From sequence record PQ349265.1: 64,000 nucleotides of DNA. One strand, 5' to 3'. The number at the start of each line of letters is the position of its first letter. The first letter of the stretch is position 1. The notes under the pieces were generated by a model that ran no database searches, was not told where the DNA came from, and was given only the letters and a program-made list of their open reading frames with translations. The position numbers and the translations under genes were made by a program. Positions 2,196-6,688 of the stretch are shown here, in pieces. This stretch comes from Escherichia phage CJY920.

Positions 2196-2852
2196 TTATT
2201 TAGCCCTTCCTAATATTCTGGCCGCCTGAGAACATATTGATTCAAGGCGGTCATTACTTATATGATCATTTCTATACCAGTACATGGTTATTGTTCCAGC
2301 ATAGATATTATCCAAATTGAAATATGGACAACTGTACATGTAATTTATTTCGGGAGTAGGCTTTTTAGTTGGTAAAAAAGCAAATTTTGAGTCGGAATAA
2401 TAATGACGTCCATTTAAATGAACTGTATATTCATCCATAGTTTTATCAACAGGATATCCTCCAAGTGATTTTTCGCTTATTGTTGAAGGTAATTTTCCTT
2501 CATATGCTATAATATCAACAAAATAGTTTAAGTTTTTAGGGCGGAAAGAATACACCGCACTAAAGTCTGCCTCAGATGATATATGAACTATCTGGAGTTG
2601 TTCCAGGGCGACAGATTCAAAGCGTGCATTTCTTTCCTTTTCAATAATTTCACTGTATGTTTCATACTTTGATTGCTTATAGTACTCAAAGAAACTATCT
2701 CCCCTATACCAAACAATCGCCATTATAAACAAAAGAATTACGACAGCTACCCGGGAAGCAAGAACTTTCCCGGTAGCGTTATCTTTGAACAAGCGATCTA
2801 GAACACCAAACAGAATATCAGAGGGCGAAAATGATATTCTAGGTGCTGCCAT
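2196..2852 (-). CDS. t: holin T (218 aa)
   Basis: Translation MAAPRISFSPSDILFGVLDRLFKDNATGK... with single N-terminal TM segment; 218 aa as in T4 t; downstream of gene 38. Confidence 0.9.
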   Translation of the reverse strand: MAAPRISFSPSDILFGVLDRLFKDNATGKVLASRVAVVILLFIMAIVWYRGDSFFEYYKQSKYETYSEIIEKERNARFESVALEQLQIVHISSEADFSAVYSFRPKNLNYFVDIIAYEGKLPSTISEKSLGGYPVDKTMDEYTVHLNGRHYYSDSKFAFLPTKKPTPEINYMYSCPYFNLDNIYAGTITMYWYRNDHISNDRLESICSQAARILGRAK

Positions 2853-2869
2853 AGACCCTCCTTTTAAGA

Positions 2870-2877
2870 TATTTATA
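2870..2877 (-). promoter_or_regulatory. late promoter TATAAATA for holin gene t, inside the 3' end of gene 38
   Basis: Plus-strand TATTTATA 18 nt upstream of the t start codon. Confidence 0.6.
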
Positions 2878-3424
2878 CGTAATGCTTGAATAAACGCTTA
2901 TACCAAGGCTTCTGTTCTTTTTCAGGCCATGAAGGGAATTCACCACCTAAATGCTCATGCTTTTCTAAAAGAGCAAAGAACCGCTTAAGGTTTTTATAAT
3001 AAAATTTTTCCTTTTTATTGGCGACAGAAGCTTCAATCATATTATTTAAAACTTGGAACTCTTTATATAATTCTTCAATTTTTCTATTACGAATTAAAAC
3101 TCGCTTATATGTTTCGTCTTCTTTCCAACCGTCATCAGTCCATATATCAAATTCGCCGGGCTCATCAAAAGTTATACCAACCGGGCTTCCAATGTCACTT
3201 ATAAAAATTTCTTCTTTATTAAAAGTCCATGCCCGTTTGCCGCGATGGTCTTCTTCATAAATCCAATCTTGAGTACGTTCATCAAATACAACCGCGTATC
3301 CTTCTTTAGGTTCTAAAGGTTTTTTAATTGTTGAATGAGCAGGAAGACCGAGGCCTTTAATCGGTTTGTAATTTTCTTCTTTGTAAAATTCTTTAGTGTC
3401 AAAATAATAATGATATATTTTCAT
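2873..3424 (-). CDS. 38: gp38 tail-fibre assembly chaperone (183 aa)
   Basis: 183 aa, directly after gene 37; preceded by the characteristic SD-hairpin-AUG split RBS. Confidence 0.85.
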   Translation of the reverse strand: MKIYHYYFDTKEFYKEENYKPIKGLGLPAHSTIKKPLEPKEGYAVVFDERTQDWIYEEDHRGKRAWTFNKEEIFISDIGSPVGITFDEPGEFDIWTDDGWKEDETYKRVLIRNRKIEELYKEFQVLNNMIEASVANKKEKFYYKNLKRFFALLEKHEHLGGEFPSWPEKEQKPWYKRLFKHYV

Positions 3425-3454
3425 ATTTAGAAGGGGCCGAAGCCCCTCTCCTTA
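3425..3454 (-). promoter_or_regulatory. split ribosome-binding site of gene 38 (SD - UUCG hairpin - AUG)
   Basis: Minus-strand mRNA UAAGGAGAG-GGGCUUCGGCCCC-UUCUAAAU-AUG; the gene 37 stop UAA overlaps the SD. Confidence 0.75.
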
Positions 3455-6400
3455 TGCTAAACGAACGATATAGTTAAAAGCAATGTTTTTAACCGTGTTT
3501 TCTGTATTACCTGTACTATTTACAGTGATAGTATGACCGTGCGAACCAATTGCTACCGTGTGGGTATGGGCACCGATACCTACAGTATGGGTATGAGCAC
3601 CTATACCTACAGTATGAGCATGGTTACCGGTGGTGTTAGTTACACCTGTCCAAGTTCTTGATGCGTGGAAATCAACGGGAGCGCCATAAGTGAAGTTGGA
3701 ACCTGTGAAGCCGTGTGAAGCCTGACTACTACCCATCACGAACGCTCCACTCGCGGTGTAGAATGAACTATTATCACTTCTGAACCAACCAAACACACCA
3801 GAGATTTCCATGTTACCTCTATCGTGAGCGTGGTTTCCAGTAGTATTGGTCGCTTTAGTACCATAATCAAATGATGAAGAGGTTTTAGTACCATAATCAA
3901 AACTTGATGTGGTTTTAGTACCCAAATCAGTATTAGATGCAGAAGCACTATGATTATGAGACTTAATACCATCAGCTTCAGCACTCAACACTGCGCGACC
4001 GCTCGGTTTACCTTTGATAGTTTGCCCACGCATATCTGGAATAACACCACTAGGATATGCAACAGCTAACTTAGGATATGCAGACTTATCAAAGGTTTGG
4101 CCTTCCATTAAAGCAAACCCGTCAGGAACTGAATCGCTCGGCCACGGAATTGGAGCACCTACCGGATAAGGTATCTGAGCATCGGAATACATCTTATACA
4201 CTTGTCCAAGTACATGGTCTGCAGGTAATTCTTCTACCGGTGATTGAGATGCACCATTAAGACCGATTACCGAAATATTGCTAGTATTTTCTGTAGCATC
4301 ATATTCAACCAATAAAGATTGGGCAAAAGAGCCCATGTATATGTATACATCATAATCATTACCAGATGTATTCACTGTAGCAATGTTTGACGGGCTGGTA
4401 CTAGTGCTAGACCACAGCGCCGCATTAATAGATTTAGGATTATTGTTACCAGTTCTAAGAACAATTTCACTTATGGATGCTTGTTCAGGAGAATTAGCAT
4501 TATAACCATTCCCGCCGATAATTTTGAAACGCGCGGTAGATGTAGATTGTGGCATTGTTACAGTAGCAAATTTGTACCAGTACCAGCCTACTACTTTATC
4601 AACACCTGACCATGTGCCAACATTAACTTTGCGGTTTAATGTGGTATTCAAGTTAGCAAAGTTTCCTGAACCACCAGTGATATTACCGTCAGTTCCTAGT
4701 TTGGTATTTCCAACTTTAAGAGGCTTAGTAATATCGACAGTATCAGAGTTTAATGCAATGCCATGGGCGTAGGTGTAATTATGCATACGAACAATGTTTC
4801 CACCATCACCAATACCTACATACCATTTTGTAACATCTGCTTTGCGTCCTTGGATGAAGTTAGAAGACTCTTGTGTTGGAGCATTTATTCTAATAGCATC
4901 GGCGGCAGTATTAACTGTTATACGCTGAGATGCTGTAGTACCTGATGTATCTACTTTAAACTTGCCCACGCCAATATCAACAACGTGTTCCATAGAAACT
5001 GCGCCGGTGCCTAACTCAATACTAAACGGGCGAAGTGGACCGATATCGCCATGTTTACCTTCACCGTAAGCAGTTGGAATAATATGAAGACTGCCTTCTG
5101 AACGTCTAAAAATGGCTCCATAATCTGCGTTCCAAATGCGAAGACCATTTACAGCATTTGTCGCGATTTCACCGGCTGCGCTGATTGTACCGTCAAATGT
5201 AGCATTTTTTACTACTGTAAAGTTTTCATTAACAATCTGGGTGCCATTTATAACCGATTCGACTTTACCCGCAGTTGTTCGTTGAATATAGCTCATCCAA
5301 CTAGTTGCGTCAGAAATTTCCATGACATTTTTACGGGTGCCTTCACTAGGATTAGTAAAGGTATTACCCCAAACTTTGATTTCCACATTATCAACTGAAC
5401 TATAACCGCTTGTATTTCCTTTGAACAACAGCGTAGAAGCATTATTACGACCATCAATATTAACCGAACCACCAATAACGTCAATATTGCCTGGAGTAAC
5501 TAACAAACCGCCATGAGTATTAATGTTTGTGGTACCTTTACCACGGAAATAGTGATGATAATTACCGCCTTGATAATATCCTAAAAGAGTCTGACCGTCA
5601 CCATACGCGTTATTATCATGATAAGTGACAACCGTCGCCAAAGCATAGTTTTCCGACGGAGGAGTGGTTAAATCGGTACCGTTTACAGAATAACCCATAA
5701 CCATTTTTCTAAGACTGGTGGTTTCTGCCGGGCCACTCAGGAAAGTTCTTGTGCCGTTGTTTACACTAAAGAAATAACCATCTTGGTGCCATTGTAAGCC
5801 GGTATCATTATCGCCAAGAGCAATTGAAGCTGTTCCTAATTCAGAATATCCTTTAGGGCCGTGTGGAAGACCTACAGAAACAGAATGACCTGCTTTCAAT
5901 CCACCAGACCAAGTAAATGACCAAAGATAGGCGTCTAATCCATCGCCGGCATACCAGGTTATTCCATCATTATCTTTAACTTCATGGAATATACCCGCAC
6001 CTACGGCATTACGCATAACACGAAGATGATTAATAGCGGTTTCGCTTTCTGCCAATGGGGTGTTATTTGCTAATGAATAGATATCATAATCGCCTGTCTT
6101 CTTCCCATTTGTAATAACTTTATCGGTCAGAATTTGTGGAGACGAAATAGATTTCCATGCTGATACTTCAGGTGAAGTAAATAGGCCACTGCCTGAAAAT
6201 GCATAAGTGCTTTCGTTACCAGCGGCGTAGTCTTGAACGCGGATATTAACTACTTGTGTAGTTAATCCATCATTAGCCGGGGCATAAATGATTCCACGTT
6301 CGCGACTATTGCCATCGAAAAAACGAACATGCGCTGTACCTGAACTTTTTGTAATAAGTTCTCCGCCTTCGGTCATAATCTGCCCGGCGGCAATAATATC

Positions 6401-6688
6401 GCGAGTTACTCGAGCAATACCAGTTAAATTAAAATTACCTGTCTGAGTGAAGGTGCCATTTAAACTATAATCACCAGTTTGATTATAGTTTCCTATATGA
6501 ATAACATTCCCGTCAATACTACCGCCCTTAGCAAAACCAAGATCAATGATATTTCCTTGGTCGTCTTTAGTAAAAAGTACGCGGTCTTTTAAGTTTATAG
6601 CCAATTCACCTTCGGCTAATACTGAAGCGGCAGGACGTGCTCCTGCAGTTTTGCTTCTTTTAAATTGTATTTGTTTTAAAGTAGCCAT
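3452..6688 (-). CDS. 37: gp37 long tail fibre distal subunit (1078 aa)
   Basis: N-terminus [13 protein letters not shown]...; C-terminal His boxes ([16 protein letters not shown]); position between 36 and 38. Confidence 0.9.
3555..3615 (-). repeat. tandem ~27-bp repeats encoding the gp37 C-terminal His boxes
   Basis: GTGTGGGTATGGGCACCGATACCTACA / GTATGGGTATGAGCACCTATACCTACA, encoding repeated (A/S)HTHTVGIG units. Confidence 0.7.

Follow-up and report, generated by a model that had tools for sequence, protein, structure and literature searches.

Tandem repeats at the tip of a phage adhesin raise the question of whether they have themselves altered the receptor recognised by the fibre or whether they build the structure that carries the receptor-binding part. 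Such repeats occur in gene 37 of Escherichia phage CJY920 (PQ349265.1), located at 3452..6688 of the window, i.e. the whole stretch of 64,000 nucleotides that was analysed (this gene and all other features given below lie on the minus strand). From its open reading frame and its Pfam domains, namely gp37_trimer, Collar and Gp34_trimer, this gene encodes the distal subunit of the long tail fibre. The original prediction held that three near-identical HTHTV(G/A)IG boxes and a duplicated SSFDY unit reflected a repeat expansion in the receptor-binding tip, which would have lengthened gp37 and offered a likely route to an altered receptor specificity. The reading favoured here, with a probability of roughly 0.85, is that the tip is of the T4 gp37 type, that the repeats are its scaffold and that a swapped Felix-O1-like head chooses the receptor.

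The window belongs to a Tequatrovirus that shares about 95% identity with LH2 and N2, among others, and its genes 34-35-36-37-38-t follow the order of T4. Gene 38 (2873..3424) lies directly downstream of gene 37 and encodes a T4-type tail-fibre assembly chaperone of 183 aa, 182 residues of which are identical to T4 gp38. A distal fibre of the T2/T6 type, where a separate gp38 adhesin of about 260 aa caps gp37 (PMC3157838), was thus rejected, gp38 being here the 183-aa chaperone. With 1078 aa, against 1026 aa in T4 (NC_000866), gp37 is indeed longer than its T4 counterpart, as had been anticipated, and the overall identity between the two is 47%. The 52 additional residues are shared between the shaft (28) and the tip (24), where the excess corresponds to a bigger head insert. 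Sequence matches further reveal gene 37 as a patchwork, the segments of which differ in their nearest relatives, PP01-type phages providing the best match for the N-terminal half of the protein; an exact look-up of the complete gp37 in a collection of 15 billion proteins returned no entry.

The assignment of the region to the receptor-binding tip is well founded, since the structure of the T4 gp37 tip (PDB 2XGF; Bartual et al., 2010, as cited in PMC12609058) aligns with aa 834-1078 over the collar, the needle and the C-terminus (E 1.6e-80), in agreement with the alignment to T4 itself. The collar or knob domain (aa 841-910; 3959..4168) comprises the Pfam domain PF07484 at aa 844-891 (E 7.1e-11, 42.3 bits for a cut-off of 24) and is almost identical to T4 as a protein, with a DNA identity of 86.9%, while the final 47 residues of gp37 are identical or nearly so. 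An AlphaFold2 monomer of aa 834-1078, built from an alignment of 121 sequences, was of poor quality (pLDDT of 55.5, pTM of 0.23), as expected of an intertwined trimer; for the needle, the arrangement of the trimer, the pairing of its strands and its metal sites are here deduced by analogy with T4.

Within this tip, two sets of tandem repeats can be distinguished. On what would be the descending strand, a 30-bp repeat (aa 923-952; 3833..3922) is made of three successive units of ten residues, i.e. unit 1 (3893-3922), unit 2 (3863-3892) and a degenerate unit 3 (3833-3862). On the putative ascending strand, a 27-bp repeat (aa 1023-1058; 3515..3622) encodes box 1, HAHTVGIGA (3596-3622), box 2, HTHTVGIGA (3569-3595), and box 3, HTHTVAIGS (3542-3568), followed by HGHTITVNS. 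In Tandem Repeats Finder, the 27-bp repeat scores 100 (2.6 copies at 3553-3623, 84% matches) and the 30-bp repeat 103 (2.5 copies at 3854-3929, 84%). These repeats are above chance level, as the best match at period 27 amounts to 25/27 against 18/27 in 500 codon shuffles, and the one at period 30 to 25/30 against 20/30. The three boxes announced from the DNA are hence present in 27-bp repeats, except that the first one reads HAH rather than HTH; as for the duplicated SSFDY unit, it is borne out by the 30-bp repeat, with one GTKxxSSFDY unit more than in T4, so that the repeat number is not the same in the two phages.

The His boxes belong to a larger series of His-x-His (HxH) motifs. The 1078-aa protein has six such motifs, all of them within aa 911-1052, and none of 20,000 shuffles of the tip reached this number. 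The first one (HNH, aa 911-913; 3950..3958) marks the start of the descending strand and aligns with HSH 883-885 of T4, the second (HAH, aa 953-955; 3824..3832) is the final rung ahead of the head, and the remaining four, at aa 1023, 1032, 1041 and 1050, are regularly spaced by 9 residues. The T4 needle holds seven HxH/Fe sites and its chain doubles back at the head (PMC12609058, PMC11705849). The successive spacings are 42, 70, 9, 9 and 9 residues here, vs. 32, 14, 37, 14, 9 and 9 in T4, where the ascending motifs are spaced by 14, 9 and 9 residues instead of being four evenly spaced ones. The repeats are the conserved His-x-His needle of a T4-type tip. Each chain would come out of the collar, run down a thin needle, form a small distal head and go back up, three chains thereby giving a six-stranded needle. 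The His boxes would correspond to the HxH rungs, which in the T4 tip coordinate iron on the fibre axis, and the GTKxxSSFDY units to the repeating strand facing these rungs. Since rungs and opposite strand together would build the needle, the repeats are better regarded as a load-bearing scaffold than as a specificity determinant. Six metal sites, a trimeric geometry and a dependence on gp38 would be expected accordingly from the T4 model.

The receptor choice would rather sit in the head, between both sets of repeats. The head insert (aa 956-1022; 3623..3823) is 67 aa long, vs. 34 aa between HxH motifs in T4, and has no counterpart in T4, where its place is occupied by the third descending HxH motif and the receptor-binding head. 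In T4, the tip subdomain spans residues 932-959 (PMC9603124) and receptor-specificity mutations map to T939, V941, G943, Y953 and A955 (PMC5221442); in the alignment, the whole segment holding these residues (939-955) has been replaced in CJY920. As the segment governing T4 specificity has been replaced, the host range probably differs from that of T4, as had been suspected, though through head replacement and not repeat expansion. The fibre would then recognise a receptor other than the OmpC/LPS site of T4, possibly an LPS structure by analogy with the Felixounaviruses.

The closest heads are indeed found among the long tail fibres of Ounavirinae, with identities over the 67 aa of 97% for SP22, 94% for EC6 and 86% for gp53 of Sf14, compared with 72.7% for the Mosigvirus vB_EcoM-ZQ3 (MW630116). 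The head is present in 59 phage records, all of which except ZQ3 are genomes of 78-93 kb, and the two of these that were checked are both Ounavirinae; ZQ3 is the only T-even phage of the collection with this head. Fibres of Ounavirinae are described as having T4-gp37-like tips with collar, HxH needle and head (PMC12609058, PMC11821841), and the authors of the Sf14 genome did not find a Mu-type fibre chaperone gene (PMC11821841). In the Felixounaviruses SP22, EC6 and wV8 and the Mooglevirus Sf14, about 100 aa, which begin at SSFDYGTK, include the head and end with HAH(T/S)VGIGAH, are nearly identical to the tip under study, with a DNA identity of 88% over 302 nt. These fibres differ by their collar and C-terminus, a shorter needle with one unit and fewer boxes, and an unrelated remainder; those of SP22 and Sf14 align poorly beyond aa 936-1034 or so, and neither collar, C-terminus nor shaft of the Ounavirinae type was encountered in CJY920. 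With ZQ3, the architecture of the tip is shared, namely the collar, two units, the head family and three boxes followed by HGH (identity of 80% for the C-terminal 249 aa and of 84.7% for the C-terminal 170 aa), although this phage belongs to a different genus, its head is more distant than that of Felixounavirus and its DNA is 80.5% identical. Side tail fibres encoded by E. coli prophages (four proteins, P0001-P0004, of 344 aa with Pfam Collar and Phage_fiber_2) likewise share the collar, needle, C-terminus and head family, with a tip identity of 73-76%, yet these are short fibres of temperate phages with a shorter needle of one unit and two boxes plus HGH. The 67-aa head is a cassette common to Felix-O1-like long tail fibres and some E. 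coli prophage fibres.

The distribution of the repeats in homologues indicates how the needle may vary. Among 116 database proteins, an HxH1-HxH2 distance of 42 residues goes with a period-9 chain of four HxH in 107 cases, a distance of 32 with a chain of three in seven and a distance of 72 with a chain of seven in one, with a single exception; among IMG/VR loci, 59 of 72 show the 42/4 state and eight the 32/3 state, again with one exception, keeping in mind that these samples were ordered by their closeness to the query sequence and contain many near-duplicate prophage proteins, so that shared ancestry inflates the counts of co-variation. Judging from these sequences, the descending 10-aa units and the ascending 9-aa boxes co-vary, with three or four length states only, and each added unit would need one added box. 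The state of two units and a four-member chain observed here appears as the usual one among the sampled homologues and the shorter state of T4 as rare. Besides, one head family is found on both needles, i.e. 32/3 (prophage fibre P0002 and IMG/VR locus L006) and 42/4 (CJY920 and ZQ3). When IMG/VR was scanned with the whole tip, the best match was 70-72%, the matches to Felixounavirus contigs were restricted to the head, and none of the contigs noticed among the 80 loci kept had the size of a T4-like genome.

At the DNA level, the limits of the cassette can be followed through changes in the nearest relative. A segment of 302 nt at 3582..3883, from the SSFDY of unit 2 through the head and box 1 into the start of box 2, is Felixounavirus-like, with 88.4% identity to the tail-fibre gene of SP22 and Megablast matches of 87-89% to SP22, Silverhawkium, PHB11, SME50 and ZX4221. 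On one side, positions 4159-3885 are T4-like at 86.9%; on the other, a T4-like block of 98.2% identity (2196..3595) takes in the end of gene 37 from box 2 (aa 1032-1078) as well as gene 38 and t, the holin gene. The similarity to BCH953P4 breaks off at 3913 and restarts at 3605. Judged from these matches, the ancestry junctions lie within the repeats, namely inside unit 2 and at the border of boxes 1 and 2. With a DNA identity of only 88%, an exchange with Felixounaviruses would not be recent. In 5,426 complete E. coli genomes, Megablast returned no match to the cassette (3560-3930), so that no prophage donor was found down to a DNA identity of about 85%. Of note, the T4-like match stops at 3885 and the match to SP22 starts at 3883, which suggested that unit 2 and the additional box originated from an out-of-register crossover between a T4-like and a Felix-like parent; this idea was rejected as unprovable, because the true parent was not T4 itself (87% identity) and the two-unit state is widespread.

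The conserved exchange motifs of the study of Tetart et al. in 1998 are reportedly 'His boxes', and Ounavirinae are not known to figure as a swap partner there or in the work of Montag et al. in 1989. The arrangement found here resembles both the exchange of adhesins among T-even phages through such motifs (Tetart et al., 1998, as cited in PMC3157838) and the replacement of the T4 tip by lambda Stf (Montag et al., 1989, as cited in PMC13517834), in that a receptor cassette lies between short conserved motifs joining DNA of different ancestry and in that such cassettes are common to unrelated phage groups.

That slippage or unequal crossing-over recently expanded the repeats, lengthened gp37 and shifted its specificity is very unlikely in the light of these results. 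Compared with T4 alone, the tip does have one 10-aa unit more and a period-9 HxH chain of four instead of three, and there is a precedent in T4 host-range mutants with duplications in the adhesin domain, the title of Tetart et al. (1996), cited in PMC3157838 and PMC5221442, stating that the host range of T4 can be widened by duplications in this portion of gene 37. The copies are, however, only 83-85% identical in DNA (25/30 between units 1 and 2, 23/27 between boxes 1 and 2) and boxes 1 and 2 come from segments of different ancestry, which together argue against a recent duplication in place, and most sampled homologues, including ZQ3 and many prophage fibres, share this repeat state. Neither the lengthening nor the shift in specificity attributed to the repeats is upheld: the stem is slightly shorter than that of T4 (42 vs. 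46 residues down, 27 vs. 32 up), so that the extra length is that of head and shaft, the repeat state is common in homologues, and the specificity residues of T4 fall in the replaced segment. Moreover, the tip has a single head, and near-identical copies spanning the receptor-binding domain, as in a Tetart-type duplication, are not found.

A marginally better, though still improbable, alternative is that the number of rungs itself matters for the host range, as it would set the reach of the head across O-antigen or capsule, and is selected independently of the head. In its favour, rungs range from 4 to 9 among 120 homologues and one head is borne by needles of two lengths, and the number of HxH motifs has been suggested to follow needle length (PMC12609058, PMC11705849), as a speculation in the former, the Bas63 paper. 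The tip under study has nevertheless one rung fewer than T4 (six vs. seven HxH), not more, and the length states vary so little that they could be neutral. As for an artefact of assembly, with repeat copies or chimeric junctions arising from misassembled reads of mixed phages, the patchwork gene with pieces best matching different phages and the absence of the exact protein from the collection searched might call it to mind, but its likelihood is minimal: all 1078 codons stand in one intact reading frame, the repeat copies have diverged enough for an unambiguous assembly, the succession of collar, two units, head and three boxes recurs in the independent isolate ZQ3, and all matches are of 86-98%, whereas contaminating reads would have given segments identical to a known phage, of which there are none.

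Returning to the T4-type scaffold bearing a swapped head, the repeats would also supply the homology for cassette exchange, because the scaffold is conserved across otherwise unrelated phages. A more ambitious proposal, put forward tentatively and at somewhat short of even odds, is that the head cassette of this Tequatrovirus was exchanged with Ounavirinae, another subfamily of myoviruses, in frame at the needle repeats, bringing a Felixounavirus-type specificity (possibly LPS-directed and associated with O157/Shigella), and that pairs of unit and box act as universal splice points keeping the strands in register. Needle repeats can probably be gained or lost only as pairs of one unit and one box. 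While the knowledge of T4-type fibres is unchanged, and this is one further case of a well-described mosaicism, the likely host-range determinant moves from the conspicuous repeats to a 67-aa head common to another phage subfamily. For typing and engineering purposes, the swappable cassette would correspond to positions ~3596-3912 of the window, with GTK units at one border and His boxes at the other, and, should the exchange with Ounavirinae prove true, it would provide a natural template for engineering the host range of T4 with Ounavirinae heads.

Gene 37 (3452-6688, minus strand; 1078 codons), whose 3' end carries the tip features of the distal long-tail-fibre subunit gp37, is followed on the same strand by gene 38 (183 codons, 2873-3424) and gene t (218 codons, 2196-2852) and preceded by ORFs of 218, 371 and 1293 codons, i.e. 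in the T4 order 34-35-36-37-38-t. The window overall has the sequence of a Tequatrovirus, sharing about 95% DNA identity with phages including LH2 and N2, and ARAGORN detected no tRNA gene across its whole length (1-64000). As 182 of the 183 residues of gp38 are identical to those of the T4 assembly chaperone, the fibre is, judging from sequence, T4-type, this chaperone-type gp38 excluding a T2/T6-type fibre with an adhesin cap. In the gap between genes 37 and 38 (3433-3453), an AAGGAG (3448-3453, minus strand) overlaps the gene 37 stop codon and is separated from the gene 38 ATG at 3424 by a tetraloop hairpin, GGGGC-UUCG-GCCCC (3433-3446, minus strand), also present in T4 minus one C; this matches the T4 gene 38 arrangement known as a "split" ribosome-binding site, where a CUUCGG hairpin draws the Shine-Dalgarno near the start codon.

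The last 245 residues of gp37 match the solved receptor-binding tip of T4 gp37 (2XGF, E 1.6e-80), and a Pfam tail collar domain lies at aa 844-891. In T4, the chain runs from the collar down a needle to a small head and back up, the trimer forming a six-stranded needle with iron on its axis coordinated by seven His-x-His (HxH) motifs (PMC12609058, PMC9603124, PMC11705849). The match to 2XGF and this published architecture identify the His boxes as predicted needle rungs, with the GTK units opposite, on the descending strand. The AlphaFold2 monomer model of the tip (aa 834-1078), with a pLDDT of 55.5 and a pTM of 0.23, was uninformative. Besides, aa 418-611 (4856-5437, minus strand) match gp34, the proximal fibre protein, in its C-terminal part (PDB 4UXE, 5NXF; E ~5e-17) and contain a Pfam Gp34_trimer domain, an internal similarity linking the two half-fibres.

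Both repeat arrays of the original prediction were recovered by Tandem Repeats Finder, namely a 27-bp repeat (3553-3623, 2.6 copies) and a 30-bp repeat (3854-3929, 2.5 copies), each with 84% matches, and self-similarity at these periods (25/27 and 25/30) exceeded the best of codon shuffles of the region (18/27 and 20/30). In the protein, three 10-residue units of GTKxxSSFDY type (3893-3922, 3863-3892 and, degenerate, 3833-3862) lead to HAH, then come 67 residues, the head (aa 956-1022), and HAHTVGIGA, HTHTVGIGA, HTHTVAIGS (box1 to box3; 3596-3622, 3569-3595 and 3542-3568) and HGHTITVNS. All six HxH motifs of gp37 fall within aa 911-1052, a number reached in none of 20000 tip shuffles. Weaker matches (75-87%) to the GTK-unit and His-box DNA were also seen in the tail-fibre locus of Felixounavirus SP22 (448-530 and 720-799), inside the shorter, upstream fibre gene; this second fibre therefore has repeats of the same kind, in agreement with a report of T4-like tips on both Felixounavirus fibres.

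The length difference given in the original prediction was correct, gp37 having 1078 residues vs. 1026 in T4 (NC_000866). Overall identity is just 47%, the two proteins being identical or nearly so over ~60 residues at the N-terminus, 47 at the C-terminus and the collar (aa 841-932). Before the collar, there are 840 residues vs. 812 in T4, and the tip has 238 residues vs. 214, with six HxH motifs (successive spacings of 42, 70, 9, 9 and 9) instead of seven (32, 14, 37, 14, 9 and 9). While the descending and ascending stems have 42 and 27 residues vs. 46 and 32 in T4, the insert between them has 67 vs. 34. The extra length thus consists of a larger head and 28 additional shaft residues, without contribution from the repeats. 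Part of this net 28, with alignment gaps running both ways, is probably held by the distal shaft (aa 583-843; 4160-4940, minus strand), a segment mostly without detectable T4 DNA match and sharing ~90% identity with BCH953P2/P4, Tequatrovirus assemblies that lack annotation; over aa 583-926, identity to these is 89-91%.

Gene 37 is a mosaic, and no record in the DNA search spans 80% of it. Its first 1670 nt (5019-6688, minus strand) are ~91% identical to SP1/PP01-type phages, best matches ranging from 88 to 91% (e.g. SP1, PP01, wV7), of which at least PP01 uses a separate gp38 adhesin. Despite this N-terminal half, both gene 38 and the gp37 C-terminus correspond to the T4 chaperone type; gene 37 therefore joins shaft and tip from two fibre designs. 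On the minus strand, a T4-like block (86.9% DNA, 4159 to 3885) extends from the collar through unit1 to the GTK of unit2, a block resembling the SP22 fibre gene (88.4%, 3883 to 3582) takes over at the SSFDY of unit2 and continues through the head and box1 to the beginning of box2, and a second T4-like block (98.2%, 3595 down to 2196) covers box2 onward, gene 38 and t. Similarity to Tequatrovirus BCH953P4 ends at 3913 (89%) and restarts at 3605 (96%), with a differing tip between. These block boundaries and break points delineate a putative exchangeable cassette (~3596-3912) bordered by repeats, which fits the proposal, as cited in PMC3157838, that conserved motifs of the distal-fibre locus are swap sites for adhesin specificity (Tetart 1998). 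An Ounavirinae-like cassette also fits the T4-gp37-like tips published for Ounavirinae fibres (PMC12609058), including Sf14 gp53, which "appears to have acquired" one (PMC11821841).

The 67-residue head matched 59 phage records, including SP22 (97%), ZX4221, Silverhawkium, SME50 and PHB11 (95.5%), EC6 (94%) and Sf14 (86%); 58 have genome sizes of 78-93 kb, and membership of the Ounavirinae was confirmed for SP22 (Felixounavirus) and Sf14 (Mooglevirus). The sole T-even is Mosigvirus ZQ3 (72.7%), whose gp37 has the same architecture (collar, two units, head, three boxes). No E. coli prophage matched the cassette at megablast level in 5,426 complete E. coli genomes, the exact protein was absent from the public collections searched (15 billion proteins), and no closer tip relative was present among the 80 IMG/VR loci kept (best whole tip 70-72%).

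Could the repeat expansion first proposed have occurred in this lineage? For 116 homologous tips with complete ends, taken in order of similarity after searching 5.8 billion protein clusters, the spacing between HxH1 and HxH2 was compared with the length of the C-terminal chain of HxH at spacing 9: 107 proteins, including those of the window and ZQ3, combine 42 with 4, seven, including T4, combine 32 with 3, one combines 72 with 7, and the sole exception combines 42 with 2. In 72 IMG/VR loci, 59 had 42 with 4, eight 32 with 3 and one 42 with 3, four Felixounavirus fibres of a different type having 34 with 1. The length states are few and both samples, similarity-ranked, include many related prophage proteins, so that counts exceed the number of independent events. 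Among the tips sampled, the repeat number of the window is the family norm, and each added 10-residue descending unit is paired with one added 9-residue ascending box, as an antiparallel needle demands. One head family occurs on both 32/3 needles (prophage fibres P0002 and L006) and 42/4 needles (window, ZQ3), and 42/4 needles also bear differing heads; heads and needle lengths thus occur in new combinations, whereas the two strands keep in step. According to its title, Tetart 1996 (cited in PMC5221442 and PMC3157838) shows that duplications in this region do alter T4 host range in the laboratory. Nevertheless, box1 and box2 share 23 of 27 bases and fall in DNA blocks of different ancestry, unit1 and unit2 share 25 of 30, and the arrangement is common to ZQ3 and most homologues, so that a recent duplication, and with it repeat expansion in this lineage as the mechanism, is unlikely.

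A host range unlike that of T4, as anticipated, remains likely; its probable cause, though, is the replaced head and not an expansion of the repeats. The T4 subdomain 932-959 (PMC9603124), which holds the receptor-use substitutions T939I, V941E, G943S, Y953R and A955E (PMC5221442), has no counterpart in the window gp37, and the OmpC/LPS-binding residues of T4 are missing. In the proposed working of the tip, gp38 would assist gp37 trimerisation, the six HxH rungs would hold metal and stiffen the needle, and the Felixounavirus-type distal head would make the first, reversible cell contact. Since Felixounaviruses are described as LPS-dependent, without dependence on a protein receptor (PMC8594841, PMC12609058), an LPS structure is, by analogy, the leading candidate receptor. 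The tip belongs to the T4-type gp37 tip family and is, as such, commonplace and well understood; of modest interest are the head common to this phage and Ounavirinae, and needle repeat numbers that vary in step on both strands.
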